From: a virus
Lineage: Duplodnaviria; Caudoviricetes
Reading direction: 5' to 3' (one strand)
Length of the DNA: 64,000 nucleotides
IMG/VR virus record: IMGVR_UViG_3300025840_004398
The stretch's first letter is position 1; every line of letters starts with the position of its first letter. This document shows positions 1,931 through 44,401 of the stretch, piece after piece. The notes beneath the pieces were generated by a model. That model was not told the DNA's origin. It worked only from the letters and a program-made list of their open reading frames with translations, and did no database searches. The translations under genes were made by a program, and so were the position numbers.

Positions 1931-2581
1931 ATGAAAGGTACAGTTTGGTGTTTTGGTGACAGTTTTTCCACACCATTTAATAAAGAACCATTTACAGGGT
2001 CGGATGAGTATGTTGATTATAAAGGATATGTTCCTAAAATATACCCACAAATTATTTCAGAAAAACTAAACATGAATCTTAAATACTTCTCAGATAGTGG
2101 TAGAGATAACTACTCAATATTTGAAAGTATATGTGAAGTTGCAGACAAAATAAAAGAAGATGATATTATCATTATAGGATGGTCTCATATTGACAGATTT
2201 AGAGTTGTTCAAACCGATGGAATTTGGAAATCTATATTACCATTACCAAGTAAGTATTTTAAATATTGGGATATGATTCCAAATTTTAATAAAGAATTTT
2301 TTCAAATGATGTTAGTAAATCGTATTGACAAGGAAAAGAATTATGCTGATGAACTTAACAATTGGATAAAACTTTTAAATACATGCTTTAAAGATAATAA
2401 AATCATCCATTGGACAGCTTTTAAACAACCCCTTATAAATTGTATATATTTTGAAAATATAGACCTAATAGTAAATGAAACAAACGGTGAAATTAAAGAT
2501 AGACATTATAGTGAATTAGGACACCAACAATTATCTGGTATATTTTTGGATATAATTAATGATACAAAAAAAATAATATGA
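1931..2581 (+). CDS. SGNH/GDSL-like hydrolase or acyltransferase
   Basis: WCFGDSFS block I; C-terminal DRHYSELGH; ends KKII. Confidence 0.75.
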   Translation: MKGTVWCFGDSFSTPFNKEPFTGSDEYVDYKGYVPKIYPQIISEKLNMNLKYFSDSGRDNYSIFESICEVADKIKEDDIIIIGWSHIDRFRVVQTDGIWKSILPLPSKYFKYWDMIPNFNKEFFQMMLVNRIDKEKNYADELNNWIKLLNTCFKDNKIIHWTAFKQPLINCIYFENIDLIVNETNGEIKDRHYSELGHQQLSGIFLDIINDTKKII

Positions 2582-2751
2582 TTATATATATATTTACAGG
2601 ATTAATATGGACTATATTTTTCGAATGGATATTAAGAAACTTTTCACCAACACAAGAAGGTCTACCAACTAATAGAGCAATAATATTTCACATCATTCTT
2701 TGGCCATTGGCCATGTTTATAGTATTTCGAAACCTATTTAATAATAATTAA
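2578..2751 (+). CDS. small 2-TM membrane protein (57 aa)
   Basis: read by hand: MIIYIFTGLIWTIFFEW...HIILWPLAMFIVFRNLFNNN; ATGA overlap with previous stop; below ORF-track cutoff. Confidence 0.7.
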   Translation: MIIYIFTGLIWTIFFEWILRNFSPTQEGLPTNRAIIFHIILWPLAMFIVFRNLFNNN

Positions 2752-2756
2752 AAAAT

Positions 2757-3347
2757 ATGATGGATATAAAAAAATACAAAATAACCGATATTGATTTTAA
2801 TGAAATGTCTGTTGAAATAGACCAAAATGTATTATATGACAAAAGGGCAAACACCGGTAATGTGTCAAAGGCTTCACCAAGTACACAATCCATCGTTGTT
2901 ATTAAAGGTGGTTGGATGGAACATATAAATAACAAGGTTATTGATATAATGAAAAAGGACATATGGAAAAACGATGATGTTTTATTTACAATGTCAAATT
3001 GGGTTTATATCGTTGGCAAAGAGGATAAGGGGGGACCGGTCTACCACAACCACTTATCTATGGAGGACTTGAATACTGTTGGCCAATGGTCTTTTGTTTA
3101 TTACACATCTATGCCAGATATATTAGAAGGAGATGATGGAGTTATATATTTTAAAAACGATAATGGTGAGGAATATAACATATTACCAAAACCAGGAGAC
3201 TTATTAATATTTCCAGCTGAACTATGGCATTTACCAAAAGTAAATCCGAAGTCTAATGAAAAACGAAGAGTTTTGGCTGGAACATTTTCATTACTAGATT
3301 ATAGAGATAGATTTACTTCATATAAAAAAGAAGTTTCATTATTTTAA
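2757..3347 (+). CDS. 2OG-Fe(II) oxygenase-like (HxH...H type)
   Basis: YHNHL, WSFVYY, PKPGDLLIFPAELWH, RRVLAG. Confidence 0.75.
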   Translation: MMDIKKYKITDIDFNEMSVEIDQNVLYDKRANTGNVSKASPSTQSIVVIKGGWMEHINNKVIDIMKKDIWKNDDVLFTMSNWVYIVGKEDKGGPVYHNHLSMEDLNTVGQWSFVYYTSMPDILEGDDGVIYFKNDNGEEYNILPKPGDLLIFPAELWHLPKVNPKSNEKRRVLAGTFSLLDYRDRFTSYKKEVSLF

Positions 3348-3352
3348 ATAAG

Positions 3353-4213
3353 ATGGAGTATCCTTTTTGGATTAACGATTTCGATAGAGTGGGTAATAAG
3401 TACAACAATAAGTACCCACTTGCAGGTGAGATATTCAAATACCCATCTTCCTTTTGGTATGGTGATAATCCAAAGAAACCAAAACAACATATGGAAAAAT
3501 CTATTCGTAGATTGTTAAACCGAGCTCACCCCCAACTACCTGTTCTTGTTATTTATAATATTCCCAATAGGGACATTGGCCAATACTCCAAGGGTGGTGC
3601 AAAGACAAGAGAACGTTACTTGGACTTTATAAAAAGATTTGCAAAAGGAGTTGGAGATAAATCCCCAATAATAATATACGAACCCGATTCCCTACCCCAC
3701 TCAACATTACTCTCAGAAGAAGAGCAGAATTGGAGAATGGAACTGATGAAAGAAGCATTGACATATCTTACTGAAAATTGTAATGGTATAATTTATATTG
3801 ATGTAGGACATTCAAATTGGCTATCACCAAAACAAGTCAGCAGATTATTAGATAGAATTTCTAACCGAAAGGTTAGGGGATTTTCAATTAACTCTTGTAA
3901 TTATAGAACAACAGAAGAATGTATTACATGGGGAACTGAAGTTTGTAGATTTAGAAGAAGAGATTATTTTGTAATTGATACTTCTCGTAACGGTCAAGGA
4001 CCTAAAGATGATGAGTGGTGTAACCCACAAGGTAGAGGATTGGGTGAACCATCAACAACTAAAACCGAACACAGAAAATGTGATGCATACCTTTGGATTA
4101 AAATACCAGGTGAATCCGATGGTAAGTGTAATGGAGGACCTAAAGCTGGAATGTTTTGGGGAGAACAAGCAGAAGAACTTGTTAAAAACTCTAGTTTATA
4201 TTTGGCAGATTGA
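3353..4213 (+). CDS. glycoside hydrolase family 6 (cellulase-like)
   Basis: YNIPNRD, EPDSL, YIDVGH, VIDTSRNG, WCNP.GRGLG, LWIKIPGESDG.C motifs. Confidence 0.92.
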   Translation: MEYPFWINDFDRVGNKYNNKYPLAGEIFKYPSSFWYGDNPKKPKQHMEKSIRRLLNRAHPQLPVLVIYNIPNRDIGQYSKGGAKTRERYLDFIKRFAKGVGDKSPIIIYEPDSLPHSTLLSEEEQNWRMELMKEALTYLTENCNGIIYIDVGHSNWLSPKQVSRLLDRISNRKVRGFSINSCNYRTTEECITWGTEVCRFRRRDYFVIDTSRNGQGPKDDEWCNPQGRGLGEPSTTKTEHRKCDAYLWIKIPGESDGKCNGGPKAGMFWGEQAEELVKNSSLYLAD

Positions 4214-4234
4214 ATTAATTTTCGTATCTTTGTA
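4201..4234 (+). promoter_or_regulatory. Bacteroidetes sigma-A type promoter
   Basis: TTTG 4201-4204, 20-nt spacer, TATCTTTG 4225-4232. Confidence 0.8.
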
Positions 4235-4249
4235 GTAAATTATTTAATT

Positions 4250-4432
4250 ATGGAAAAACCTATATACCTAACCGACAAAAGATTCTTTTACAATATTGCA
4301 AAAGTAGAACACCGAAACGGCAATATATCAGAAGAAGAACTTAAACTTAAAAAGAAGTTATGGGAAGATGAATACAAAGACCCAAACTACGAAGAAAAGT
4401 TTAAGAAGAAATATGGTCCAAGAGACCTATAA
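4250..4432 (+). CDS. hypothetical protein
   Basis: ORF track; follows a promoter; aattATG start. Confidence 0.75.
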   Translation: MEKPIYLTDKRFFYNIAKVEHRNGNISEEELKLKKKLWEDEYKDPNYEEKFKKKYGPRDL

Positions 4433-4435
4433 TTA

Positions 4436-4509
4436 GGTCGAGTACCCAAGTGGTCTAAGGGGATGGATTGCAAATCCACTATTCGTAGGTTCGAATCCTA
4501 CCTCGACCT
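4436..4509 (+). tRNA. trnC: tRNA-Cys(GCA)
   Basis: GGTCGAG/CTCGACC acceptor stem, loop TTGCAAA, GTTCGAATC T-loop; no encoded CCA. Confidence 0.92.
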
Positions 4510-4514
4510 CAATT

Positions 4515-4588
4515 GGACTCGTAGCTCAGTTGGATAGAGCATCTGCCTTCTAAGCAGACGGTCAAAGGTTCGAATCCTTTCGAGTTCA
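4515..4588 (+). tRNA. trnR: tRNA-Arg(UCU)
   Basis: GGACTCG/CGAGTTC acceptor stem, TCTGC-CTTCTAA-GCAGA anticodon arm; no CCA. Confidence 0.95.
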
Positions 4589-4594
4589 CTATTT

Positions 4595-4804
4595 ATGAAA
4601 AAAATTGTAATTGTATTACTATTTATTATTGGTTGTATTCCTGAAACAGATATATGTGCAAAAGGTGAACCATCACCAAACAATGTAGTTTGTGTTGAAA
4701 TATACCAGCCGGTAATTGCACCAGATGGAACTGAATATACAAACGCTTGTTATGCAGAAAGAGATGGATGGGATAATGGATGTTTAACTTTAAAAGAACT
4801 CTAA
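4595..4804 (+). CDS. Kazal-like domain lipoprotein
   Basis: signal plus lipobox-like IIGC; CVEIYQPVIAPDGTEYTNACYA matches the Kazal pattern minus one Cys. Confidence 0.7.
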   Translation: MKKIVIVLLFIIGCIPETDICAKGEPSPNNVVCVEIYQPVIAPDGTEYTNACYAERDGWDNGCLTLKEL

Positions 4805-5046
4805 TGTACAATAACGCAACATTCGTAACCAAAGAACAATTGAAGTTTTTAAAACAAATGGATAATTGGTTGCGTGATACACATTTTAATTCTATCTCAG
4901 AAGTGGAGACTGTTAACGAAGTTCGTGGTCTTATTTCTAAAATAGAAGAAAAGGGTTACTACTATGAAGGTGAAGCTGAATTACTCAATTTAATGAGAAG
5001 TGAGTATATCGAACATACAAAGAAAACTAAAAAGAAAAGGTTATGA
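4804..5046 (+). CDS. hypothetical protein, G-x-Y..E..R..Y paralog family
   Basis: start reassigned to TAATG-coupled ATG 4804; motif GYYYEGEAELLNLMRSEYI. Confidence 0.8.
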   Translation: MYNNATFVTKEQLKFLKQMDNWLRDTHFNSISEVETVNEVRGLISKIEEKGYYYEGEAELLNLMRSEYIEHTKKTKKKRL

Positions 5047-5129
5047 GAAAGTTGATTTGGAAATTATACAACGATAACATGATTTCACTTGAAGTGGCAA
5101 ACTTATTATTAGATAAATACGATGAGTAA
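5043..5129 (+). CDS. 28-aa peptide (MRKLIWKLYNDNMISLEVANLLLDKYDE)
   Basis: overlaps the previous stop (ATGA) and the next start. Confidence 0.55.
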   Translation: MRKLIWKLYNDNMISLEVANLLLDKYDE

Positions 5130-5460
5130 AATTATATATATGGATGATACCATCAAGATGTTGGGTAAAAAAAATGCAAAAGATACCCAAAAACTTATTA
5201 CTGAAAATGATGTGATTCATACTGATACAATAACTTACTTATCAGTTGAAGAAAAGGATATCAAAATAAGAAAAACTTTGGATGGTAGACCTTTGGTAGA
5301 GTTGGATGAACCAATGGCACTTATCGTAAACACAAAAGTTCCACACAAATGGATTTTACAAGATACAGAAACGGGTGAAATTTATCGTGGAACAACAGAA
5401 ACCACCATTGGTAAACAATGGGAAAAGATTATAGAGATAAATGATAATATAGACTCATAA
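5122..5460 (+). CDS. hypothetical protein
   Basis: ORF track. Confidence 0.75.
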   Translation: MSKIIYMDDTIKMLGKKNAKDTQKLITENDVIHTDTITYLSVEEKDIKIRKTLDGRPLVELDEPMALIVNTKVPHKWILQDTETGEIYRGTTETTIGKQWEKIIEINDNIDS

Positions 5461-5476
5461 TCATTTTAAAAATAAA

Positions 5477-5965
5477 ATGGAAAATAAAATAGAACCACTT
5501 AAAGGATTTACATCGGATAATTTTATTATAGATGGCATGTTTAACAAAATAGAAGTTGATGATGTAGACAACTTAACTGATTTGTTAACCTGCCGAATAG
5601 ATGTAAATAATAATCCTATTTTATTAGAATCTAAAAATTGTAATGAATTTCTTATAAGAAGTTGGACAAAGTTAGTCAAGCTTCATCTCAATATTAAAGA
5701 TATAAAAACTCCACCGGTACAAAAATTTATTAAACCTTATATTATTTGTGCAATGCATCAGGATTTTTGGGTAACCAATAAGAATAACTTTATAAGAGCA
5801 AACAACATACAATTAGGAGATGAACTCCTTACCTTTTCATTTGATACATCATTGACTGTTAGTAAAATAGAATTACTAAAAAATGAAAATAAAAAAAACA
5901 TATACGAACTAAAAAATATAACAGATAACAACAATTATTTTGTTAATGGTGTTTTAACAAGATAG
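5477..5965 (+). CDS. stand-alone degenerate Hint (intein-like) domain protein
   Basis: IRANNIQLGDELL and IYELKNITDNNNYFVNGVLTR match Hint blocks; no C1, TxxH or terminal HN. Confidence 0.65.
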   Translation: MENKIEPLKGFTSDNFIIDGMFNKIEVDDVDNLTDLLTCRIDVNNNPILLESKNCNEFLIRSWTKLVKLHLNIKDIKTPPVQKFIKPYIICAMHQDFWVTNKNNFIRANNIQLGDELLTFSFDTSLTVSKIELLKNENKKNIYELKNITDNNNYFVNGVLTR

Positions 5966-6000
5966 ATGTATATATCTAATTTGTGTAAAAAAAAATAAAA

Positions 6001-6585
6001 ATGTACAATAGATTTATTGAAAACTTCTTTTCTAAACAAGAGTGTGAAGATATAATAGAGTTTAGTAAAACAAAAAAACTAATAAAATTAACATCGGTCT
6101 ATATTGATAAAGATAATAATTTCATACCACATGAAGAAGAAGATGAGGAGAATAATAACAGAAGAAACGGTACGATGTATAGTGAAAGTGAAATCATAAA
6201 AACACCATCTTTAAAAAAAATATACGATAGAACTATTCAATATATAAATGACGAACCTCCCTACAAAGGTATGAGTTGCGATGGTATTCCTAAATTCACA
6301 TTCAATAAATACGAAAAAGGAGATTACTTAAATCATCATTTTGATGGCCATGAAATCGAGTTGGGTGCGATTATAACAATAATATATCAACTAAATGATA
6401 ATTACGATGGTGGGGATGTTACCTATATTATAAATGACGAGGAACTTATTGTTCCTAAAAAACAAGGTTCTATTTTTATATTTGATTCGAGAATAGTTCA
6501 TTCTGTAAAAAAGGTTAAATATGGATGTAGATACTCTATGAATTCGTGGCCAGTTTCAAAGATTGAAAAAAAATCTTTGGTATAA
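6001..6585 (+). CDS. 2OG-Fe(II) oxygenase (P4Hc-like)
   Basis: KYEKGDYLNHHFD, QLNDNYDGGD, VHSVKKV..GCRYS; ends KKSLV. Confidence 0.9.
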   Translation: MYNRFIENFFSKQECEDIIEFSKTKKLIKLTSVYIDKDNNFIPHEEEDEENNNRRNGTMYSESEIIKTPSLKKIYDRTIQYINDEPPYKGMSCDGIPKFTFNKYEKGDYLNHHFDGHEIELGAIITIIYQLNDNYDGGDVTYIINDEELIVPKKQGSIFIFDSRIVHSVKKVKYGCRYSMNSWPVSKIEKKSLV

Positions 6586-6619
6586 TTTGGCCAATTAAAA
6601 ATAATTTCGTATATTTGTA
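6586..6619 (+). promoter_or_regulatory. Bacteroidetes sigma-A type promoter
   Basis: TTTG 6586-6589, 20-nt spacer, TATATTTG 6610-6617. Confidence 0.8.
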
Positions 6620-6633
6620 CAAATAACTATTAA

Positions 6634-6798
6634 ATGATTATTATGGATATGGTACCTGACACTATTGAAAAATGCGTAAGTTGTGGAGAAGATACTCCAT
6701 ACAGATTCAACGAAAACATCTACATGAGAAATTGGTATGTAGAAGGAGCTGGACAACTTTGTGAAACTTGTTATAACAAAATATATCAAACGGTATGA
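6634..6798 (+). CDS. small Zn-ribbon protein (54 aa)
   Basis: read by hand: KCVSCGEDTP...GAGQLCETCY (two CxxC); follows a promoter. Confidence 0.8.
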   Translation: MIIMDMVPDTIEKCVSCGEDTPYRFNENIYMRNWYVEGAGQLCETCYNKIYQTV

Positions 6799-7058
6799 CT
6801 GAAAAAGATTTAATTAATTTAGGATTCGATAAATTCGAACAAAATGATGAAGAAGATAGATTCTACTATTATTGTTATGATTTAAATGGTGAATCGGGAG
6901 GCGGTTCTTTGATATCTCTTGCTAATGATGAAGTAGAGGATGGTAATTGGAAAGTTTCTGCATGGGATATCCATGAGAACTTGGTATTCGAAGATAAAGA
7001 AGATGTCAAGATATACATTGATTTATTAGAAAGAAATATATTACAAAAAGAACTTTGA
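6795..7058 (+). CDS. hypothetical protein
   Basis: ORF track; ATGA overlap. Confidence 0.8.
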   Translation: MTEKDLINLGFDKFEQNDEEDRFYYYCYDLNGESGGGSLISLANDEVEDGNWKVSAWDIHENLVFEDKEDVKIYIDLLERNILQKEL

Positions 7059-7747
7059 TACTATCATTTTTATCATATGGAGAAAAATATCACAAAGAGT
7101 TTTTAGAAATATCAAAAAACTTTAAAAAAGAAAATATAGTCGTTGCTTCTGATAAAATATTTGAAGAGTACCACACAGTATTAATAAAAGACGATTTTAA
7201 TTTTAATTTAAAAGAATTATCAATAACTGAATCTCTTGGGAAAGGTGATTCGGTTTTATATATAGATACTGATACTATTGTTAAAAATCCAAATTATAAC
7301 ATATTAAACGAATTAGATGATGGTATATATGTAAAGTGGATTGGTAATGAAGTTGAATATCTAAATGAAATAATAACATCTAAGAGTTTTAGCTATGGTA
7401 AAACTTCAAGAAGTGATGTAAACAAATATGGAAAAGAACTTTTTAATATAGTGGGTAAACCAATTAAGTTCATAGATGAGTGTATATTATACATAAAATT
7501 AAAAGGGGATATAAAGAATGAATTTATAAAAACCTATAAAGATATAGTATATAAGTTTAAAAATAATACACCTTATAGAGAAACCGATGATAAGTGGGGT
7601 GCAATGGAAGGGTGTATAATATGGTCGGTATCTGAATTATTAAACATTAATATAGATAGTACATCATTATCAGAGTTTTTTAAAGAATTTGAACACTATG
7701 GTCCAACATCAGGACATTCCACAAAAAATATAAAAACAGTTATTTAA
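7055..7747 (+). CDS. glycosyltransferase-like (GT-A, DxD)
   Basis: VLYIDTDTIV DxD motif; TTG start overlapping previous stop; ends KTVI. Confidence 0.55.
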   Translation: MILSFLSYGEKYHKEFLEISKNFKKENIVVASDKIFEEYHTVLIKDDFNFNLKELSITESLGKGDSVLYIDTDTIVKNPNYNILNELDDGIYVKWIGNEVEYLNEIITSKSFSYGKTSRSDVNKYGKELFNIVGKPIKFIDECILYIKLKGDIKNEFIKTYKDIVYKFKNNTPYRETDDKWGAMEGCIIWSVSELLNINIDSTSLSEFFKEFEHYGPTSGHSTKNIKTVI

Positions 7748-7755
7748 ATATCAAT

Positions 7756-8510: not shown

Positions 8511-8542
8511 TTATAATATAACAATTAAGCAAGGAAACAATC

Positions 8543-9864: not shown

Positions 9865-9875
9865 TATTTATATCT

Positions 9876-12451: not shown

Positions 12452-13330
12452 GTGGATACTGTAATATACTCTTATAAAAATATAAACACACAAGGTAAAA
12501 CATTTGACGATGATTTTATTAAAATGGCAAGGTTATCGGTTGAATCATCTTCTAAGTTTTACAAAACAAAGTTATATTGTGATGGGGGTAGTAAAGAACT
12601 ATTTGACAGGTATAATATAAAATTTGATGAGGTTATAGTACTTGATGAGTTAAATGATTATAGTGGTTCTGTATTTTGTATGCCAAAAATAATCACAATG
12701 ATGCATCAAACTGAACCATATATTCATTTAGACTTTGATGTTTTAATTTTAAGAAAACTTCAAGATAAAGATTGTATTGGATTTGCATATCCTGAAGTTA
12801 GTATATCACCCACATATAATTTTGAACAAATTGAGTATGTATATGAATCCTATATATTACCATTTAAAAAATACTCAAAGGATAAAACAGATTATAAAGA
12901 ATCTATACTTTGGAACTTTGATAAGATACCAAATCATGGTATCATTTATGTAAACAATCCAAACATAATAAAGTCAGCTTACCAGCAAATTATAATAGAT
13001 TTTGAAGATGCGGTAAACGAATCGAAACCAATGGAGGGATTGGCTCAGTATATAGAACAGTTTAGCTTAAAAAGATATTTAGATGAGAATAAAATAAAAT
13101 ATGATTTTTATGAAGATGTTTGTAATTTTTCATTTGAAATCGATATGAATAAATTTACAATAAGGGGTAATAGTAAATTAAAAACAGATTTACACTTCTT
13201 ATTACATCATGATTTTATTCACTTTCATAATTACCCATTAAATAGAGAACTGTTTAGAGAAATAATTGATTATTTTAATATGTCTATTTTTAATAAAAAA
13301 ACTGAAAAAATAAATAAAATTTTAATGTAA
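12452..13330 (+). CDS. DUF6734-like / GT-like protein
   Basis: PKIITMMHQTEPYIHLDFDVLI; PNHGII; IEQ; ends KILM. Confidence 0.55.
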   Translation: MDTVIYSYKNINTQGKTFDDDFIKMARLSVESSSKFYKTKLYCDGGSKELFDRYNIKFDEVIVLDELNDYSGSVFCMPKIITMMHQTEPYIHLDFDVLILRKLQDKDCIGFAYPEVSISPTYNFEQIEYVYESYILPFKKYSKDKTDYKESILWNFDKIPNHGIIYVNNPNIIKSAYQQIIIDFEDAVNESKPMEGLAQYIEQFSLKRYLDENKIKYDFYEDVCNFSFEIDMNKFTIRGNSKLKTDLHFLLHHDFIHFHNYPLNRELFREIIDYFNMSIFNKKTEKINKILM

Positions 13331-16118: not shown

Positions 16119-16152
16119 TTTGGATAATTAAAATATTTTTTGTATATTTGTA
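16119..16152 (+). promoter_or_regulatory. Bacteroidetes sigma-A type promoter
   Basis: TTTG 16119, 20-nt spacer, TATATTTG 16143-16150. Confidence 0.8.
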
Positions 16153-17523: not shown

Positions 17524-17557
17524 TTTGTATAATTAAAAAATAATTCGTATATTTGTA
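17524..17557 (+). promoter_or_regulatory. Bacteroidetes sigma-A type promoter
   Basis: TTTG 17524, 20-nt spacer, TATATTTG 17548-17555. Confidence 0.8.
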
Positions 17558-20779: not shown

Positions 20780-20986
20780 ATGAAAAGATATCCTCATCAA
20801 TGTGGACCAATAGAATATATTAACAATGAGGCTTATCAAATTGTTGCGAGATATTCCATAACAGAAGTTAAAGATGCTCAATTAATCAAAGAATGGTTGG
20901 GGTGTGATACCGTATTTAAATCAAACAGACAAAATCTATTTATATTTTGTAATCACATAGAAGAGATAACTTGGGAAACGATATAG
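20780..20986 (+). CDS. hypothetical protein
   Basis: ORF track. Confidence 0.8.
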
Positions 20987-21544: not shown

Positions 21545-22000
21545 ATGAGATGGGTACAATACTTCAGAGAACTTGCACATACAGTCAAGAAAAAATCCAA
21601 AGATAAGAACACACAAATTGGTGCTGTAATTGTTGGTAAGGATAAAGAAATTGTATCTACTGGTTATAATTCTTTTCCTCGTGGTATTAATGATAATCTC
21701 GATGAAAGACAAGAAAGACCAGAAAAGTATTATTGGTTCGAACATGGTGAAAGAAATGCAATCTACAATGCAGCAAGAATAGGAGTTTCTACCAAGGGAA
21801 CAACTATGTACCTTTCATGTGGAGTTCCTTGTTCAGATTGTGCAAGGGGAATCATAAATGCAGGAATCGTTCGTATCTTTTGTGAACGAGGTGGTGGAGC
21901 AAAAGGACCTAAATGGGCAGATTCAGCCGAACGTAGTTGGGAGATGTTAGAAGAAGCTGGTGTTAAAGTTTGTTTTTACGATGATGATTTCCATGTCTAA
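21545..22000 (+). CDS. dCMP deaminase
   Basis: SKD..TQIGAVIV, TGYNSFPRG, HGERNAI, PCSDCARGI. Confidence 0.93.
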   Translation: MRWVQYFRELAHTVKKKSKDKNTQIGAVIVGKDKEIVSTGYNSFPRGINDNLDERQERPEKYYWFEHGERNAIYNAARIGVSTKGTTMYLSCGVPCSDCARGIINAGIVRIFCERGGGAKGPKWADSAERSWEMLEEAGVKVCFYDDDFHV

Positions 22001-25020: not shown

Positions 25021-25371
25021 ATGAGAAAAAGAGCAGTAAGTCTTACTAATTGGAAAAGGTATTTGGATTATGAAAATAATCCAAAACTTATCCCTTTTAT
25101 AAAATCTCGTGGTAATGAGGTGTTTTGGCAAATTTCTCAAAACGTATGGAAATATAATGGTAGGGGGCTGTCATCACTAACTATGATTATACATGAAAAT
25201 GCACCCTATGCTATTAATATACCAAAAAAAGAATATTTTGAAGTTATGAATTATGCTTTGAGATTTTTTGAAAAGAGAGAAGATTATAAAAAATGTCAAA
25301 GTATAATAGAATGGTTGGATAATATGAAGGAAAATGATAAAAAGAAAATAAAAAAAATTAAACTTATATAA
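25021..25371 (+). CDS. hypothetical protein with UVR-like motif
   Basis: EKREDYKKCQSI; ends KKIKLI. Confidence 0.75.
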   Translation: MRKRAVSLTNWKRYLDYENNPKLIPFIKSRGNEVFWQISQNVWKYNGRGLSSLTMIIHENAPYAINIPKKEYFEVMNYALRFFEKREDYKKCQSIIEWLDNMKENDKKKIKKIKLI

Positions 25372-26146: not shown

Positions 26147-26792
26147 GAAAAACCCACCAAAGGGTAAAGTTAAATTTAACTTAACTCTTTCAGAAGAACA
26201 AAAAGAAGCAAAAGCAAATATCTTATATCACCCATATAATTTTATATTGGGTAAAGCTGGTAGTGGTAAAACACTCCTAGCGGTACAAGTTGCATTAGAT
26301 ATGTTTTTCACAAGACAGATAAACAAAATCATTATAACAAGACCAACTGTATCCAATGAAGATAATGGATATTTACCTGGTTCTCTTGATGAAAAGATGG
26401 AGCCTTGGTTAGTTCCTATTCGTTCTAATATGAGAAAGGTTTATAACAAACCTATGATATTAGAAAAGATGGAAAGAGAAGATAATATTGAGTTGGTATC
26501 ACTATCACACTTTAGAGGAAGAACTTTTGAAAATGCATGTGTGATTGTAGATGAATTCCAAAACTTAACTAAACAACAATTAGGAATGGTATTGGGTAGG
26601 TTGGGTAAACAATCCACAATGATTCTTACAGGTGACCCACAACAAATTGATTTAAAGTTTAATAATGATTCCGCGATACATGAAGTTCCAAAATTAAAAC
26701 CATCTCAATATGTATATTCGGTATCATTAAAAGATAATCATAGACACGAAGCGTTGGATGAGTTATTGAAATTATTAAATGAATATTCATAA
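26130..26792 (+). CDS. phoH: PhoH family ATPase
   Basis: GKAGSGKT, GYLPGSLDEKMEPW, RGRTF, DEFQN, GDPQQID, RH. Confidence 0.95.
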   Translation: MPENIEKNPPKGKVKFNLTLSEEQKEAKANILYHPYNFILGKAGSGKTLLAVQVALDMFFTRQINKIIITRPTVSNEDNGYLPGSLDEKMEPWLVPIRSNMRKVYNKPMILEKMEREDNIELVSLSHFRGRTFENACVIVDEFQNLTKQQLGMVLGRLGKQSTMILTGDPQQIDLKFNNDSAIHEVPKLKPSQYVYSVSLKDNHRHEALDELLKLLNEYS

Positions 26793-31842: not shown

Positions 31843-31876
31843 TTTGGATATTTAAAATATTTTTCGTATATTTGTA
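31843..31876 (+). promoter_or_regulatory. Bacteroidetes sigma-A type promoter
   Basis: TTTG 31843, 20-nt spacer, TATATTTG 31867-31874. Confidence 0.8.
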
Positions 31877-37830: not shown

Positions 37831-37837
37831 TTTAATT

Positions 37838-38005
37838 ATGCAAAGTTTAAAACTATATGAGTTGAAAATAGAACAACTCGAAAAAGAAAATAAAGACCTT
37901 AAACAACAACTTGAAAAACAAGAGTTAATAAAAGAAGGTTATAAAGAAGAAATTTCTAAGTGGAATAAAAAATATAAAGATTTAAAAAATCAAATGATAA
38001 AATGA
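37838..38005 (+). CDS. small coiled-coil protein (55 aa)
   Basis: read by hand: MQSLKLYELKIEQLEKENKDLKQQ... Confidence 0.7.
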   Translation: MQSLKLYELKIEQLEKENKDLKQQLEKQELIKEGYKEEISKWNKKYKDLKNQMIK

Positions 38006-38130
38006 CACCACACGATATAAAACAAATTCAAAGAGAATTATCATTACTTAAAATGAAAGAAGTAATTACGATAAACGATAAATACAGAATACAAAAATTA
38101 CAACAATTATTAGACGAAAATTATGATTAG
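38002..38130 (+). CDS. small hypothetical protein (42 aa)
   Basis: read by hand: MTPHDIKQIQRELSLLKMKE...; ATGA overlap. Confidence 0.65.
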   Translation: MTPHDIKQIQRELSLLKMKEVITINDKYRIQKLQQLLDENYD

Positions 38131-39085
38131 AACAGCAGAATGTGTATCACCGATGCACCCAGATAAGATGTGTGATAGAATATCAGACACTCTTTTAGAT
38201 TTATATTTAGAACAAGACCCTAACTCACGAGTAGCAATTGAAACTTGTGGTGGTATGGGTGAAGTTTATATAACAGGAGAAGTTACTTCAAATGCAAATG
38301 TATCTGAAGAAAAAATTACCGAAGTAGTTAAAGAAATTGTGAAGGATGATGTTATCGTTCTTATAAACCTTAACTCACAATCACCAGAGATTGCAAATGG
38401 AGTTGATACTGGTGGTGCAGGAGACCAAGGAATTATGACTGGTTATGCTTGTAGAGAAAACGAACAACTACTACCACAAGAATATTTCCTTGCAAGAGAA
38501 CTCAACAAATTCATTTTTGAGAAGTTTCCTTTTGATGGTAAAACTCAAATCACTTTAGATAGAAATAGAATCAGAGCAGTTGCCTCTTTTCAGAAAGCAC
38601 CCACTACTGAACTATACACTTTGGTAACCGATTTCTTCAAAGAATACCCACAATACACTTTACAAGAAATCCATTGTAATCCTGCGGGTGATTGGAACAT
38701 TGGAGGATTTACTGCGGATGCAGGATTAACTGGTAGAAAACTTGCAGTAGATAATTATGGTCCTCGTATCCCAATCGGTGGAGGTGCGTTTAGTGGTAAA
38801 GACTCAACCAAAGTTGATAGAAGTGCTGCCTACATGGCTCGTAGAGTTGCAGTAGATATCTTAGAACAAAATCAAGAAGCACAAGAAGTATTCATTCAAC
38901 TCGCTTATGCAATTGGATATGACCAACCACTTCAGGCAACTGCAGTAATCGATGGAGTAGAAACTCCAATCGAAGGATATGATTTATCACCAAAAGGAAT
39001 TATCGAATTTTTAGATTTAAGAAAACCAATCTTTGCAGAAACCGCAAAGTTTGGACATATGGGTGCAGGATTTTCTTGGAAATAA
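38123..39085 (+). CDS. metK: S-adenosylmethionine synthetase
   Basis: HPDKMCDRISD, GAGDQG, GLTGRK, GGGAFSGKD.TKVDRSAAY, FGH. Confidence 0.95.
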   Translation: MIRTAECVSPMHPDKMCDRISDTLLDLYLEQDPNSRVAIETCGGMGEVYITGEVTSNANVSEEKITEVVKEIVKDDVIVLINLNSQSPEIANGVDTGGAGDQGIMTGYACRENEQLLPQEYFLARELNKFIFEKFPFDGKTQITLDRNRIRAVASFQKAPTTELYTLVTDFFKEYPQYTLQEIHCNPAGDWNIGGFTADAGLTGRKLAVDNYGPRIPIGGGAFSGKDSTKVDRSAAYMARRVAVDILEQNQEAQEVFIQLAYAIGYDQPLQATAVIDGVETPIEGYDLSPKGIIEFLDLRKPIFAETAKFGHMGAGFSWK

Positions 39086-39086
39086 A

Positions 39087-39120
39087 TTTGGAAATATAAA
39101 AAATTATTCGTATCTTTGTA
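39087..39120 (+). promoter_or_regulatory. Bacteroidetes sigma-A type promoter
   Basis: TTTG 39087, 20-nt spacer, TATCTTTG 39111-39118. Confidence 0.8.
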
Positions 39121-39137
39121 TAACAAAACTATAATAA

Positions 39138-39608
39138 ATGAAAAAGTATAAAGTTATTTTAATTAGTGGAGGATTTGACCCTGTTCATAGAGGACACATC
39201 GAATGTATTAATAATGCCAAAGAACTTGCTGATGAAGTTTGGATTGGTCTTAATAACGATAGATGGTTACAACAGAAAAAAGGTAAAGCATTTATGAACG
39301 AAAAAGAAAGACATTTTATAATGAGTAATCTTAAAAATGTTGATTGGGTTTATATAATGAATCCCAAAGACTACGAAGATAAAACTGCAATTGATTTCAT
39401 AGAACAAGCTAGATTAAAATATATCAAAGAAAATGGTGAATTACCAAAAGGTGTAATGGCATTTGGTAATGGTGGTGATAGAACAGAAACTACAACACCA
39501 GAAAATGATACTTGTAATGGATTTGGAATTGATTCAGTATGGGGATTGGGAGAAAAAGTACAATCTTCATCTTGGTTATTAGAAAAGTATTTAAATATTG
39601 CAGAATAA
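39138..39608 (+). CDS. cytidylyltransferase-like nucleotidyltransferase (HxGH)
   Basis: SGGFDPVHRGH, GLNNDRWL..KKG, FGNGGDR, KVQSSS. Confidence 0.88.
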   Translation: MKKYKVILISGGFDPVHRGHIECINNAKELADEVWIGLNNDRWLQQKKGKAFMNEKERHFIMSNLKNVDWVYIMNPKDYEDKTAIDFIEQARLKYIKENGELPKGVMAFGNGGDRTETTTPENDTCNGFGIDSVWGLGEKVQSSSWLLEKYLNIAE

Positions 39609-39847
39609 TGAATATAGAACAATTAGTAAAAGATTATCCCAACGATATGGAGTTGGGTGGGAAGATTAGAGAACTCTATTGGAAAGGTAGAGAGAACTTT
39701 GATACTCTAAAAGAAAAAATGAAAGATGCAAAAATCTTTGAATCACCAGATGGAGGTAAAACTGTTTATGTTCGTGGGTGGGGTGAAGATGTTTCTTCAA
39801 GAAAAAAAGTTACAACACAATTAAATTTATTCGATGAGGCTAATTAA
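39608..39847 (+). CDS. hypothetical protein
   Basis: start reassigned to 39608; DYPNDMELG and IFESPDGGKTVY. Confidence 0.75.
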   Translation: MNIEQLVKDYPNDMELGGKIRELYWKGRENFDTLKEKMKDAKIFESPDGGKTVYVRGWGEDVSSRKKVTTQLNLFDEAN

Positions 39848-40448
39848 AGACCCAAATAAGTTGAGAAAACCATTGGAACCAAAACCAATGACTCAAGAAC
39901 AGATTGATGAAATATCAACAACTCTATTAACAGAACTTACAAAACATGGTGGTATAGGATTATCTGCAAACCAAATAGGTTTAGATGTTCGTGCCTGTGT
40001 AATCAATGTAAAAGAACCTTTGGTACTAATAAACCCAATCGTTACAGAAGTATCAAAAGATACCGTTGCATATGTAGAACAATGTTTATCATTAGATAAA
40101 ACAATGAAGAAACCTGTCAAGACTGTAAGACATAAATCATTTACAGTTGAGTGTGATAATTTAGGAACTGTTATCTTTTCACCAGACCAAAAAGAACCTT
40201 GGAAGGATTCTAATGAATTCTTTTCAGATGAGGGGTTATTAGAGTGTGTTTGTGCACAACACGAACTAGACCACCTTAATGGGGTTCTAATCACCGATAA
40301 AATCAGAAGATATACAACAACAGTTGTATCAACTAAAAAGTATGGTAGAAACGATAGAGTAATGGTAAAACTTGCTAATGGAGATACTGAATTTATGAAG
40401 TATAAAAAGGCACAACCTTTACTTTCACAAGGAGCAGAAATCCTCTAA
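39834..40448 (+). CDS. def: peptide deformylase
   Basis: GIGLSANQIG, EQCLS, AQHELDH; C-terminal KYGRND extension. Confidence 0.9.
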   Translation: MRLIKDPNKLRKPLEPKPMTQEQIDEISTTLLTELTKHGGIGLSANQIGLDVRACVINVKEPLVLINPIVTEVSKDTVAYVEQCLSLDKTMKKPVKTVRHKSFTVECDNLGTVIFSPDQKEPWKDSNEFFSDEGLLECVCAQHELDHLNGVLITDKIRRYTTTVVSTKKYGRNDRVMVKLANGDTEFMKYKKAQPLLSQGAEIL

Positions 40449-40461
40449 AAAATTTGTAAAA

Positions 40462-40725
40462 ATGGGAAAACTTATATTTAGATATACAGATGAACTCGTA
40501 GAAGATATACGAGAAGCAAAAGAAATTGAACTCACCGTACCAGATGATATGGATATCAATGAGTTTAAAGTTATGTGTGTAAGAATGGCATCTGCTATGG
40601 GATATCAAGAAAAATCTATCCAAAAATCATTTGGAGATTTGGTTTTCGGTGATGAAGATGTAAACACATTAAAGGAATTATTAGATGAACTTAACATCAA
40701 AAGAAACAATCAAGAATTTGAATGA
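40462..40725 (+). CDS. conserved phage hypothetical protein
   Basis: ORF track. Confidence 0.8.
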   Translation: MGKLIFRYTDELVEDIREAKEIELTVPDDMDINEFKVMCVRMASAMGYQEKSIQKSFGDLVFGDEDVNTLKELLDELNIKRNNQEFE

Positions 40726-40975
40726 ACGCCTATTTACTCAATCAGCAGTTATTGAAACCCTCTGTGAATTGTTGATTAGTAAAGAAGTGGTTACACATGA
40801 TGAGTTAGAAAATCTCATTTACAATAATATAGAAACTCGAAAAGACGAGTTAAAAGAACTAACAAAAAAACTCAAACCAACTAAGATACAAATCTCAGTT
40901 GAAGATGAGTTTAATAATGCATTTGATGAGGGTCTAATGGAGGGAATGTACTTCGGTCCAATTGGTGAATGTTAA
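40685..40975 (+). CDS. hypothetical protein
   Basis: ORF track; possible alternative TTG start at 40718. Confidence 0.7.
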   Translation: MNLTSKETIKNLNERLFTQSAVIETLCELLISKEVVTHDELENLIYNNIETRKDELKELTKKLKPTKIQISVEDEFNNAFDEGLMEGMYFGPIGEC

Positions 40976-40991
40976 GATAACTTAATATTTA

Positions 40992-41025
40992 TTTGGATAT
41001 ATAAGATATTTTTCGTATCTTTGTA
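40992..41025 (+). promoter_or_regulatory. Bacteroidetes sigma-A type promoter
   Basis: TTTG 40992, 20-nt spacer, TATCTTTG 41016-41023. Confidence 0.8.
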
Positions 41026-41051
41026 AAAGTATTATCCCAAAAGGAGAAACT

Positions 41052-41636
41052 ATGAAAAAATATAATGTAATAGGACTTGTATCCCTTATATCATTAATAC
41101 TGATGAGTTTTACAAGTTATATAATGAGAGATTCTGTTGAAACAACAATCCTCAAAGCAAAACCAATAGTAACGATAGAACCTACTATTGAAATTAAACC
41201 AATCAAAATTGAAATTGACCAAACACAAATGTTCTTAGATGCAATCGGAATGAGAGAATCATCAAACCGATACGATGTTGTGAACAAATGGGGATATATG
41301 GGAAAATATCAATTTGGAAGAAGAACTCTTAAATCATTGGGTTACGATATAACAAAAAAAGAGTTTTTGAATTCACCAATACTACAAGAAAGAGCAATGT
41401 TAGATTTACTAAATCACAATAAGAAAATTTTACAGAAGTATATAAATTATTGGGATGGTAAAAAAATCAATGGTACTATAATTACCGAAAGTGGTATCTT
41501 AGCAGCTGCACATCTTGCAGGACCTGGTAATGTTAAAAGATTCCTTAAAGAAGGAAAAGAATTTAAAGATGGCAATGGTACAAAACTTACAAGATACCTT
41601 ACCTTATTTAGCGGTTATGAAATAAATATCGATTAA
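41052..41636 (+). CDS. lysozyme-fold / lytic transglycosylase-like protein with N-terminal anchor
   Basis: AIGMRESSNRY..VN..GYMGKYQFG...L...Q; AAAHLAG. Confidence 0.75.
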   Translation: MKKYNVIGLVSLISLILMSFTSYIMRDSVETTILKAKPIVTIEPTIEIKPIKIEIDQTQMFLDAIGMRESSNRYDVVNKWGYMGKYQFGRRTLKSLGYDITKKEFLNSPILQERAMLDLLNHNKKILQKYINYWDGKKINGTIITESGILAAAHLAGPGNVKRFLKEGKEFKDGNGTKLTRYLTLFSGYEINID

Positions 41637-41637
41637 T

Positions 41638-41913
41638 ATGTTAGAACTATTTACAACCTATAATATCATTATTGGTATTTCGGTTATCACAAATGTTATA
41701 TTATTGGTAGGTGTTAGAAACCTACTTAGACAGAACGAACAGTTGGAAGATAGATTAGTTGAAACCAATGATTTCGTAAAGAATAAAGTAGAAGCATCAC
41801 TTGATAGAATGAGACAATTAGATTTCAAACAAGCCTTTGAAAAAGATGATGAAGTTGGTGTAACTTTCCAAGAATTAAAAAAAGTAGTTGAAGAACTAAA
41901 CAACGACCTATAA
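41638..41913 (+). CDS. single-TM coiled-coil protein
   Basis: ORF track. Confidence 0.75.
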   Translation: MLELFTTYNIIIGISVITNVILLVGVRNLLRQNEQLEDRLVETNDFVKNKVEASLDRMRQLDFKQAFEKDDEVGVTFQELKKVVEELNNDL

Positions 41914-41914
41914 T

Positions 41915-42688
41915 ATGGCCAAACAAAGAAGAAAAAAATCCAAAATATATTTTGGTACTCCTGCACAAGAAGCAATCATAGAATACAACAAATCAAAAGA
42001 CCCAGCAGAAAGGTCTAAGATTTACGAAACAAGAATTAAATATCCTTTTGAAAAACTTGCAGAAAATGTTTTAAACACATTTAAATTTACTTACTTTGAT
42101 GTTCCTAAGAAAGATATACAAACAGAAGTAGTTTCTACAATGGTAGAAAAAATGCATATGTTTAAAGAAGGTAAGGGGAGAGCGTTTTCATACTTTACTA
42201 TTATTGCAAAAAACCATCTTATCTTAAAAAATAATGGAAATTATAAAAGGTGGAAACAAAATTCACTTCTTTCAGAGATGCCAGAAACTTGGAATCCTGA
42301 AAATGATTTTGAAGTAGTACAAGAGAATAATGAGTTTAAAGAATTTAAATATATGATGATTGCATATTGGGATAGAAATTTAAACTCCGTATTTACAAAG
42401 AAAAGAGATTTACAAATTGCTGATGCCGTATTAGAATTATTTAGACGAAGTGACCATATAGAAAACTTTAATAAAAAACATCTATACCTACTTATAAGAG
42501 AGATGACTGATTGTAAAACTCACTACATCACCAAAGTTGTAAATGTAATGAAACAACATCAGAAAAAAATGTTAAATGAGTATCTTGAACATGGTGAGTT
42601 TAAAGAACCAAATAGAAAACCATTTTGGCAAAAACCAACTCAAGAAGATGAGGGTGAGAACCCATATTTAGATAACGAATTTTTATAG
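41915..42688 (+). CDS. RNA polymerase sigma-factor-like protein (candidate late sigma)
   Basis: region-2-like LAENVLNTFKF...DIQTE...KMHMFKEGKGRAFSYFTIIAKNHLI. Confidence 0.55.
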   Translation: MAKQRRKKSKIYFGTPAQEAIIEYNKSKDPAERSKIYETRIKYPFEKLAENVLNTFKFTYFDVPKKDIQTEVVSTMVEKMHMFKEGKGRAFSYFTIIAKNHLILKNNGNYKRWKQNSLLSEMPETWNPENDFEVVQENNEFKEFKYMMIAYWDRNLNSVFTKKRDLQIADAVLELFRRSDHIENFNKKHLYLLIREMTDCKTHYITKVVNVMKQHQKKMLNEYLEHGEFKEPNRKPFWQKPTQEDEGENPYLDNEFL

Positions 42689-42694
42689 AAAAAA

Positions 42695-44401
42695 ATGAAA
42701 GGTTATATTTTAGGAATATCGTGTGGATATCACGATAGTGCAGCTGCACTGATTAAAGATGGAAAAGTTTTAGGAGCGGTAGAAGAAGAAAGATTTACTG
42801 GTATAAAACACGATTCATCTTTTCCTATTAATACAATCCAATGGTTATACAAAGAATTCAAAATAGAAGGTGAGGATATAGAATCAGTTGCTTTCTATGA
42901 TAATCCCAAAACCAAATTAGATAGAATACAAAAATCTCTTAAACGAGGACCTATATCTCAATATTTTAATCGTGGTAAAATTCTAAAAAGAAATAAAATA
43001 AAATACGATACTTTTGAAAAACAAATTTATGGTATTACACATACCAACGTAAATATATTTTATTCAGACCACCACCTTTCACACGCATCATATTCCTTTT
43101 ACACATCTCCATATGATAGAGCATCTATTCTTTCGGTAGATGGAGTTGGTGAATGGGAAACAACCACTCTTTGGTATGGTGAAGGAAATAAGATTTCAAA
43201 AATACAACAGATTAACTTCCCACATTCACTTGGGATGTTATATTCAGCCTTTACTGCTTTCTTAGGTTTCAAACCAAACGAAGGTGAGTACAAAGTTATG
43301 GGTTTGGCTCCATATGGTGACCCAAAAACGTTTCTTAATAAATTTAGGAAACTATATACCCTCACAGATGATGGTGGATTCGAACTGAATATGGAATACT
43401 TTACATATGATTGGTCAGATACTCATATGTTTAACGAGAAGTTGGGACAACTCTTGGGTATTCCAAATCGGTTACCTGAAGATAATTTAAATCAACCTCA
43501 CAAAGATTTATCAGCAACTCTACAACACGAATACGAATTTCTATTCTTTAGATTAGTAAATAGATTATTCGCAGTTCGTTCATCTAACAATTTATGTTTG
43601 AGTGGTGGATGTGCATACAATGGAACTGCAAATGGAAAGATATTAGAGAAATCAAACTTTAAGAATGTTTGGATTCCACCTGCTCCATCTGATGCTGGTT
43701 CTGCTATCGGTGCCGCACTTCATGTTTATTTCGAAATGGGGGGAACTCAAAAGGTAGATAACACAACTCCTTATCTTGGTCCTCACTACAAAAACGAAGA
43801 TGTAGAAAAGGCTTTAGAAGAAATGGATGTAGATGTTTGGTTCGAAAAGAAATCACATTCAGAAATAATTCCTTTAATCTCAAAAGAAATCACAGAAGGA
43901 AATGTAGTAGGTTGGTTTGAAGGTAAAATGGAATTTGGTTCTCGTGCATTAGGAAATCGTTCTATTTTAGCAAATCCATGTGACCCACAAATGAAATCAA
44001 GGGTAAATCGAGTAATTAAAAAGAGAGAAGGATTCAGACCCTTTGCTCCAATGGTAAAGTTAGAAGAACAAACAAAATACTTTGATTATAAAAAAGAAGT
44101 TCCTTATATGAATCAAGTGGTAAAGGTAAAAGAAGAGCATCAATCTAAATTACCAGCAATCACTCATGTTGATGGTTCTGCAAGAATTCAATCAGTTACC
44201 AAAAGACAACATAAGAGAATCTACGAACTTCTCACACAACTTCACAAAGATAATGGATATCCAATAGTTCTCAACACTTCATTCAATTTAAAAGACCAAA
44301 CAATGGTTTTAGACCCAAGAACTGCAATCGAAACTTTCTTAGATTGTGAAATGGATACTTTAGTAATTCACAATTATATTATAAAGAAAAAGATTTTATA
44401 A
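42695..44401 (+). CDS. carbamoyltransferase (NodU/CmcH/TobZ family)
   Basis: HDSAAAL..EEERF..KH, HHLSHA, DGVGE, GEYKVMGLAPYG, GFRPFAP, HVDGSARIQ, NTSFN; ends KKKIL. Confidence 0.95.
   Translation: MKGYILGISCGYHDSAAALIKDGKVLGAVEEERFTGIKHDSSFPINTIQWLYKEFKIEGEDIESVAFYDNPKTKLDRIQKSLKRGPISQYFNRGKILKRNKIKYDTFEKQIYGITHTNVNIFYSDHHLSHASYSFYTSPYDRASILSVDGVGEWETTTLWYGEGNKISKIQQINFPHSLGMLYSAFTAFLGFKPNEGEYKVMGLAPYGDPKTFLNKFRKLYTLTDDGGFELNMEYFTYDWSDTHMFNEKLGQLLGIPNRLPEDNLNQPHKDLSATLQHEYEFLFFRLVNRLFAVRSSNNLCLSGGCAYNGTANGKILEKSNFKNVWIPPAPSDAGSAIGAALHVYFEMGGTQKVDNTTPYLGPHYKNEDVEKALEEMDVDVWFEKKSHSEIIPLISKEITEGNVVGWFEGKMEFGSRALGNRSILANPCDPQMKSRVNRVIKKREGFRPFAPMVKLEEQTKYFDYKKEVPYMNQVVKVKEEHQSKLPAITHVDGSARIQSVTKRQHKRIYELLTQLHKDNGYPIVLNTSFNLKDQTMVLDPRTAIETFLDCEMDTLVIHNYIIKKKIL

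Follow-up and report, generated by a model that had tools for sequence, protein, structure and literature searches.

Several systems are known in which a short peptide at the extreme C-terminus of a protein decides its partner or its fate. The peroxisomal targeting signal type 1 (PTS1), -SKL-COOH, is read by the tetratricopeptide repeat (TPR) domain of PEX5, the ClpX C-motif 2 degron is represented by the end of MuA (..RRKKAI-COOH), and C-terminal docking is also used by the clamp tails of T4 gp43, gp33 and gp55, by the C-terminal tail of the single-stranded DNA-binding protein (SSB-Ct) and by the cargo-loading peptides of encapsulins. On eukaryotic cytosolic Fe-S proteins, the tripeptide [LIM]-[DES]-[WF]-COO- is recognized by the targeting complex of cytosolic iron-sulfur assembly (CIA) (PMC10245660). 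Among peptides that are made on the ribosome and modified after translation (RiPPs), the proteusins have large folded leader domains (PMC10858898). In the present study, we describe a C-terminal tail, consisting of a Lys/Asn-rich stretch and two terminal aliphatic residues (hereafter the tag), on unrelated tailoring enzymes encoded in a 64,000-nucleotide stretch of tailed phage DNA (IMG/VR record IMGVR_UViG_3300025840_004398; the whole stretch is referred to as the window). In relatives of this phage, the tagged gene sets co-occur with a gene for a precursor-like protein.

A terminal motif on the tailoring enzymes

Two terminal residues drawn from I, L, V, M and F were observed in 20 of the 97 non-overlapping open reading frames (ORFs) of the window, and the same dipeptides occupy 7.7% of internal positions. 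With a strict tag defined as K or R within positions -7 to -3, a polar residue at -3 and I, L, V, M or F at the last two positions, 16 ORFs were tagged compared with 2.2 expected (p 8.6e-10). The strict tag was concentrated in the tailoring enzymes (13/18, versus 3/80 other window ORFs; Fisher p 7.5e-10), and the same distribution was observed among ORFs of at least 150 amino acids (aa), with 13/18 tailoring enzymes and 1/32 others tagged (p 3e-7). A complete relative of 288.7 kb (G001) carries 22 strict tags versus 8.4 expected (p 5e-5), grouped in islands. The earlier note, which had pointed to the shared tail, had named AT content as a possible cause of the pattern; the enrichment survives this control. 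No excess was obtained with the same test in four AT-rich phage genomes (33-36% GC), the observed and expected numbers being 1 vs 4.1 in Flavobacterium phage immuto, 7 vs 5.6 in Microcystis phage Mel-JY01, 6 vs 3.7 in Pelagibacter phage HTVC008M and 3 vs 4.9 in Prochlorococcus phage P-SSM2. Because these four controls show no excess, AT-rich codon usage is ruled out as the cause of the tag.

The tail is also retained among homologues. For the flavin-dependent halogenase, 113 of the 120 best metagenomic homologues (41-100% identity) end in a Lys/Asn-rich stretch, variable in sequence and length, followed by two terminal aliphatic residues. The earlier note had proposed a comparison with bacterial homologues as a further check on its claim, and among the bacterial halogenase sequences from GTDB genomes (29-35% identity) the tail was found in 1/80, which rules out inheritance from bacterial donors for this enzyme. 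The halogenase, 2-oxoglutarate (2OG) and PhyH enzymes of HTVC008M and P-SSM2 are without the tail, so that it is no trait shared by the auxiliary enzymes of marine phages in general. In the case of the 2OG oxygenase at 6001, two aliphatic residues end 39 of the 50 best representatives of 50%-identity clusters, typically as ..KKTLL or ..KKSLI, and the remoter representatives mostly end in ..GPxFK. The carbamoyltransferase ends in [KR]K[KTN][IV][ILVF] in 88% of 81 relatives; its homologues (n=80) use ten different hydrophobic codons at the last position, and AAA and AAG are similarly common at the Lys positions of the tag (33:32 to 48:32). Because the codons of the tail residues are diverse, selection acts on the protein, and the tail is a selected short linear motif. 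No conserved DNA element was present at the gene ends, where tail codons and downstream sequence vary from gene to gene, and a DNA-level element is thus ruled out.

The position of the motif is strict. The aliphatic pair is exactly terminal in 653 of the 662 proteins belonging to 16 tagged families, and the family-weighted logo has I (0.69) or L (0.15) at -1, L (0.73) or I (0.20) at -2, S, T, K, N or E at -3, K (0.47) at -4 and a Lys-rich stretch from -5 to -8. The consensus is Lys-(Ser/Thr/Lys/Asn)-(Leu/Ile/Val)-(Ile/Leu)-COOH, ending a flexible Lys/Asn-rich extension. In the AlphaFold2 model of the halogenase (mean predicted local distance difference test, pLDDT, 91), the last helix (396-406) gives way to a coil, the tail, which is flexible and exposed as modelled; mean pLDDT over residues 411-414, the final four, is 56.

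The tag follows a pathway, and its gain and loss do not depend on the fold of the enzyme. Other large proteins of the same region (glycoside hydrolase family 6 (GH6) hydrolase, dCMP deaminase, PhoH, UvdE, the S-adenosylmethionine (SAM) synthetase MetK, cytidylyltransferase, peptide deformylase (PDF), NT5C and helicase) are untagged, and housekeeping enzymes are without the tag. In the lineage of the window, both the carbamoyltransferase and the DUF6734 protein are tagged, whereas their counterparts from a second lineage (L099, L100) end in ..YKQVK and ..LMKPK, respectively; the carbamoyltransferase homologues of HTVC008M and P-SSM2 are also untagged. Outside the island, at 216646, G001 encodes a homologue of the radical SAM enzyme at 21960 that shares 40% identity with it and ends, untagged, in ..VENFPK, and only one of the three radical SAM genes of G001, namely the island one, is tagged. 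Since carbamoyltransferase, DUF6734 and radical SAM proteins occur both tagged and untagged, the tag tracks the pathway and not the fold.

A precursor-like gene at the tagged loci

In the second lineage (L099, L100), about 12 consecutive tagged genes, including 2OG oxygenases, a halogenase, DUF6071 and others without assignment, are interrupted, among others, by an untagged 496-aa ORF, the precursor-like gene, and by a 112-aa ORF ending in ..RHLIP. The G001 homologue of the 496-aa ORF is 64% identical and stands amid a tagged block. No match to the precursor-like protein was found in Pfam, nor a sequence-profile match in the PDB. A structure model of moderate confidence (pLDDT 68) gave a Foldseek match to Hint/intein domains (E 1e-7, target TM up to 0.79), and the N-terminal half matched E. 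coli YjfC, a glutathionylspermidine-synthetase-like ATP-grasp protein (E 5e-5). The ExN and QEF motifs, which are ATP-grasp catalytic motifs, are invariant in 59 homologues. The terminal His-Asn of the Hint domain is followed by a conserved, six-Cys peptide of some 30 residues that also contains several Trp and Tyr (core CWCPWNYCG..), then by a Gly/Pro-rich stretch and K-(L/I/V)-COOH. In L016, from the lineage of the window, four tagged enzymes lie directly upstream of the gene, which takes a two-Hint form: ATP-grasp, Hint, a 32-aa Cys-rich peptide and a second Hint. Two architectures of the protein were observed, one ending with the peptide (ATP-grasp-Hint-peptide-COOH) and one with a further Hint domain (ATP-grasp-Hint-peptide-Hint). 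In the latter, the intein C-part precedes the peptide and the intein N-part follows it, as in engineered SICLOPPS (split intein circular ligation of peptides and proteins) constructs. By analogy, because the two-Hint form has this order, head-to-tail cyclisation of the six-Cys peptide is conceivable.

In 79 further IMG/VR loci taken around homologues of the precursor-like gene, 649 of 1517 ORFs were strict-tagged compared with 36 expected, and among ORFs of at least 150 aa, 555/981 were tagged. Sixteen families at these loci have two-aliphatic ends in at least 85% of members; eight of them carry the strict tag at 98-100%, and the rest have two-aliphatic ends at 85-99%. The untagged families are the precursor-like protein, DUF2061, a 126-aa protein, APS kinase and the carbamoyltransferase of that lineage. 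In immuto, Mel-JY01, HTVC008M and P-SSM2, which have no tag excess, BLAST found no counterpart of the precursor-like gene, and tblastn gave no match to it in 50,697 GenBank phage records. No published description of the tag or of the ATP-grasp-Hint-peptide gene was found in the literature searched; the earlier note, too, had been aware of none for the tag.

Proposed role of the tail

Herein, we propose that the tail is a carboxylate-anchored docking label, a pathway address by which the tailoring enzymes would be brought to the precursor-like protein. A pathway address is the best reading, and one to which we give an even chance, because the tag is confined to enzymes for which a Trp/Tyr/Cys-rich peptide would be a plausible substrate, and because it co-occurs with the precursor-like gene. 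The tailoring enzymes so labelled would belong to one peptide-modification (RiPP-like) pathway encoded by the phage, with a modified peptide as the predicted product; the precursor would be a fusion of a GspS/YjfC-like ATP-grasp domain, a Hint self-cleavage domain and the six-Cys, Trp/Tyr-rich peptide of about 30 residues. The motif must be terminal and sits on a floppy tail, as would be expected if a reader held on to the free carboxylate together with both aliphatic side chains, and each enzyme would thereby dock to one common, putative reader. The earlier note had suggested a common C-terminal address recruiting the enzymes to one scaffold, substrate, compartment or capsid. The address has gained in definition, being lineage- and pathway-specific, strictly terminal, flexible and carried along with the precursor-like gene; nothing observed speaks for the capsid and compartment variants.

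The putative reader would most likely be the precursor-like protein itself. Binding of carboxylates is what ATP-grasp domains are made for. In place of the leader-peptide recognition, by a RiPP recognition element (RRE), of ordinary RiPP pathways, the precursor might use its folded N-terminal part, and the polarity would be reversed, with the enzymes carrying the peptide and the substrate carrying the reader. In this inverted logic, which we regard as doubtful, the GspS/YjfC-like ATP-grasp domain of the substrate would bind the carboxylate of the K-(S/T)-L-I tails. If true, a few C-terminal point mutations could plug any enzyme into the pathway, and the gain and loss of the tag on the carbamoyltransferase, DUF6734 and radical SAM enzymes would be accounted for. 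When the G001 precursor-like protein was modelled in complex with its cognate tagged 2OG oxygenase, the score was 0.30, with the mark set at 0.32; obtained without control runs, it weighs neither for nor against docking.

Several observations weigh against docking to the precursor-like protein. The tagged genes of the window are spread over 43 kb in several small operons and form no single block, the dispersed set including four radical SAM enzymes, two SGNH-like proteins, the carbamoyltransferase and DUF6734, and the precursor-like gene is absent from the 64-kb window. The co-occurrence of tag and gene rests on few fully sequenced genomes. In G002, two Hint domains are divided by Asn-Phe alone, the Cys-rich peptide is missing, and the neighbours are still tagged. 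The last residue of the tag showed no co-variation between genomes, with a variance below the permuted value, and thus no signal of partner co-evolution. Finally, DUF2061, the 126-aa protein and APS kinase are small untagged families with the same phyletic pattern, any of which could be the reader instead.

The address might indeed be read elsewhere, by another pathway protein such as DUF2061 or the 126-aa protein, by a PDZ- or TPR-like host protein, at a membrane site or in a compartment, which we consider unlikely. DUF2061, the 126-aa protein and APS kinase occur in tag-bearing genomes only, and the class I PDZ-ligand form (S/T)-x-hydrophobic-COOH is matched by about half of the tags, position -3 being S or T in 49% after family weighting and K, N or E otherwise; however, PF13180 (PDZ_2), the one PDZ model used, had no match in the phage genomes G001-G005, to which the search was confined. 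Export or capsid loading conflicts with the need of radical SAM and 2OG enzymes for cytoplasmic cofactors, and four to five residues would be too few for a membrane-binding helix. The tail could also be a degron of the kind represented by ClpX C-motif 2 (MuA ..RRKKAI type), its basic residues and nonpolar C-terminus serving as a signal to a host AAA+ protease that would keep the enzymes short-lived or clear them at a set time; a timed degron had been the other suggestion of the earlier note. Flynn et al. are said to have described, in 2003, ClpX C-motif recognition of such C-termini, and the composition of the tag, its strict anchoring to a free C-terminus and the flexible, exposed tail of the halogenase model would suit an unfoldase. 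Despite these features, a degron seems quite unlikely, given that the same region expresses small early proteins and housekeeping enzymes without the tag, that the tag tracks one pathway and one precursor-like gene rather than an expression class, and that G001-G005 yielded no ClpP gene, though a protease of the host would serve.

RimK, TTL and LysX act on protein C-termini. Likewise, the tails might be substrates of the ATP-grasp domain, by which the C-terminal carboxylate of each enzyme would be activated and ligated to an amine. The invariance of the ATP-grasp catalytic motifs in the 59 homologues is in keeping with such ligation, as is the retention of the domain in the two-Hint variants, where the own C-terminus of the peptide is not free; however, covalent capture of a dozen enzymes is of no evident use, the sequences indicate no acceptor, and the idea, which is purely inferential, appears very unlikely. 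That the tail has no function, and is a by-product of AT-rich codons, a gene-end DNA element or donor inheritance, is hardly credible. K, I, L and N do have AT-rich codons, and the genes closely abut, with some stops overlapping the next start, but the four AT-rich controls without excess, the diverse codons, the tail-less bacterial and cultured-phage homologues and the retention of the tail across 30-45% identity all speak against it.

If the docking label is true, it would provide a four-residue, portable means of assigning enzymes to a biosynthetic pathway, it would make the co-acting genes of large uncultured phages predictable from sequence even when scattered as in the window, and it might serve as an easy tool when enzyme recruitment is to be engineered. 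Also indicated is a peptide-making system, widespread and phage-encoded, for which the literature searched has no description; during infection, it would halogenate, hydroxylate, cross-link, sulfate or carbamoylate a Trp/Tyr/Cys-rich peptide. The finding also bears on the old question of what role is played by the many 2OG oxygenase, halogenase and radical SAM genes of aquatic phages.

Window context and comparison with known systems

The window (30-32% GC, nearly all genes on the + strand) comes from a large uncultured myovirus. It encodes a gp6-like baseplate wedge, which indicates a tailed phage; the closest cultured relatives are Mel-JY01 and immuto (38-41% identity), and a family A polymerase, found in immuto, is used in this phage group. 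Intergenic TTTG-N17-21-TAnnTTTG sites, of the Bacteroidota sigma-A promoter type, number 11 in the window versus 4.3 expected. Eight of the 11 have a longer common sequence, TTTGG..(A/T-rich)..TTCGTAT(A/C)TTTG, with TTTG at -33 and TAnnTTTG at -7 (Table 1). Because of these promoter sites, the host is probably a member of the Bacteroidota. The sites stand at the heads of small operons containing tagged genes, which suggests early expression of these operons.

The C-termini quoted in the earlier note for 14 enzymes and for the hypothetical protein at 25021 were all exact on re-reading of the ORFs, and its four exceptions were rightly named. Start-codon choice alone differs for three genes (20971 vs 20989, 21960 vs 21993 and 34636 vs 34693). 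Its family labels were borne out by Pfam for the 2OG oxygenase at 6001, the halogenase, three radical SAM enzymes (21960, 34636, 35948) and the carbamoyltransferase; those of the 2OG proteins at 2757 and 10878, the radical SAM protein at 26792 and the SGNH proteins at 1931 and 37153 fall below the Pfam cut-off, the protein at 12452 proved to be DUF6734, and the labels glycosyltransferase (GT) at 7055 and sulfotransferase at 20971 have no Pfam support.

Several neighbouring genes were also observed. Two of the tagged radical SAM enzymes have an SPASM-type auxiliary-cluster module N-terminal to the CxxxCxxC core; the usual order is the reverse, with the core before the SPASM module. The genes for SAM synthetase, a cytidylyltransferase-like protein and peptide deformylase adjoin the carbamoyltransferase gene and are kept in dozens of relatives; the SAM synthetase would feed the radical SAM enzymes and methyltransferases. 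At most of 75 loci, the relatives of a conserved 257-aa protein end in ..(I/L)D(N/E/T)(D/E)(Y/F)L, an acidic-aromatic tail that differs from the Lys/aliphatic tag and recalls SSB or clamp-binding tails. The phage also carries an untagged, cellulase-type GH6 gene and a small ORF with a weak pretoxin-Hint match, after which no Cys-rich peptide follows.

Table 1. Features of the window, with precursor-like genes of related phages
Feature	Position	Strand	C-terminus	Remarks
Tagged: SGNH/GDSL-like, 216 aa	1931..2581	+	..TKKII	weak Lipase_GDSL match, E 0.017; G001 homologue at 265415 ends ..TNKLI
Tagged: 2OG-Fe(II) oxygenase-like, 196 aa	2757..3347	+	..EVSLF	below Pfam cut-off; homologous to a 217-aa family, 100% tagged
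Tagged: P4H-type 2OG-Fe(II) oxygenase, 194 aa	6001..6585	+	..KKSLV	Pfam E 2e-11; orthologue ends ..KKSII, ..KKSLL, ..KKSLI
Tagged: protein without Pfam family support, 230 aa	7055..7747	+	..IKTVI	GT label unconfirmed
Tagged: 2OG-Fe(II) oxygenase-like, 211 aa	10878..11513	+	..MKTLL	below Pfam cut-off
Tagged: DUF6734 protein, 292 aa	12452..13330	+	..NKILM	Pfam; relatives end ..TKIIV, ..TKFVI; L099-lineage homologue untagged
Tagged: flavin-dependent (Trp-type) halogenase, 414 aa	14235..15479	+	..KKETPII	Pfam E 7e-95
Tagged: small sulfotransferase-like, 186 aa	20971..21531	+	..NNTLI	no Pfam support; related protein has weak Sulfotransfer_1 match; 99% of family end in two aliphatic residues (loci around precursor-like gene)
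Tagged: radical SAM, N-terminal SPASM module, 371 aa	21960..23075	+	..LEKVI	Pfam
Tagged: hypothetical, 116 aa	25021..25371	+	..KIKLI	G001 homologue ends ..SKKTLI
Tagged: radical SAM-like, 351 aa	26792..27847	+	..KKSNLI	27.8 bits, slightly below Pfam cut-off
Tagged: radical SAM, N-terminal SPASM module, 440 aa	34636..35958	+	..IKNVI	Pfam
Tagged: radical SAM, 402 aa	35948..37156	+	..LKSII	Pfam
Tagged: SGNH/GDSL-like, 225 aa	37153..37830	+	..YINLI	weak match, below Pfam cut-off; G001 homologue ends ..KPNII
Tagged: NodU/CmcH-type carbamoyltransferase, 568 aa	42695..44401	+	..IKKKIL	Pfam
Untagged exception, 301 aa	11510..12415	+	..SIRDL	L099 homologue untagged too
Untagged exception, 293 aa	16635..17516	+	..NPKNI	
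Untagged exception, DUF6071/SGNH-like, 246 aa	25406..26146	+	..YAGEH	family half tagged, half untagged in relatives
Untagged exception, Sulfotransfer_2 enzyme	62987..63556	+	..YDMDI	structural region
GH6 (cellulase-type)	3353-4213			E 3e-52; untagged
Small ORF, 162 aa	5477-5965			weak pretoxin-Hint match, E 3.5e-4
SAM synthetase	38123-39085			
Cytidylyltransferase-like	39138-39608			
Peptide deformylase	39834-40448			
Conserved 257-aa protein	41915-42688			
Promoter-type site	688-719	+		Bacteroidota sigma-A form
Promoter-type site	4201-4232	+		Bacteroidota sigma-A form
Promoter-type site	6586-6617	+		Bacteroidota sigma-A form
Promoter-type site	16119-16150	+		Bacteroidota sigma-A form
Promoter-type site	17524-17555	+		Bacteroidota sigma-A form
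Promoter-type site	31843-31874	+		Bacteroidota sigma-A form
Promoter-type site	39087-39118	+		Bacteroidota sigma-A form
Promoter-type site	40992-41023	+		Bacteroidota sigma-A form
Precursor-like gene	G001 50818-52305 (= L084:10818-12305)			inside or next to tagged block
Precursor-like gene	L099:13633-15123			inside or next to tagged block
Precursor-like gene	L016:4145-6097			inside or next to tagged block
Two Hint domains, no Cys-rich peptide	G002 47616-49556 (L303)			neighbours tagged

Each of the known systems shares part of this picture. Like the tag, PTS1 is a C-terminal tri- or tetrapeptide with basic residues nearby that addresses dozens of unrelated enzymes to one destination. However, its motif [SAC]-[KRH]-[LM]-COOH has a basic residue at -2, where the tag has Leu or Ile, and its setting of a eukaryotic host, PEX5 and peroxisomes differs from that of a tailed bacterial virus with Bacteroidota-type promoters, no organelle and no TPR reader seen. 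The ClpX C-motif 2 has the same form as the tag logo, with basic residues and then a nonpolar C-terminus, and it also needs the free carboxylate; it differs in being a degradation signal with no pathway link. The tails of clamp-binding proteins, SSB and encapsulin cargo likewise bring several different proteins to one partner, but these motifs are longer or acidic and of another consensus, and the phage setting shows no shell or clamp context. The beta-clamp motif (QL[SD]LF or QLxLxL) does not agree with the tag, which has K, N or R and not L at -4, and the Gly/Ser/Leu-rich C-terminal motif of about 10 residues typical of encapsulin cargo is missing from the logo, as is a shell gene from the conserved neighbours.

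With RiPP pathways, the phage system shares the halogenase, radical SAM and 2OG enzyme classes and the use of one recognition element for all pathway enzymes, and RiPP precursors with a large N-terminal domain exist. A precursor-like gene with a candidate core peptide is present beside the tailoring enzymes in the relatives (G001, L099, L016 and the 79 loci), not in the window. In known RiPP pathways, it is the substrate that bears the recognition peptide, for which the enzymes have a reader domain; in the phage system, the enzymes bear the peptide, and no RRE was detected there. The CIA tripeptide resembles the tag in being very short, strictly C-terminal and present on many unrelated clients, and its free carboxylate is read by one hub. 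It is eukaryotic, acidic/aromatic, devoted to cofactor delivery and has a known reader, whereas the phage tag is basic/aliphatic, without acidic or aromatic positions in its logo, and its reader is putative. Thus, the tag adds to the C-terminal client-recognition peptides, and it is probably the address label of one biosynthetic pathway.

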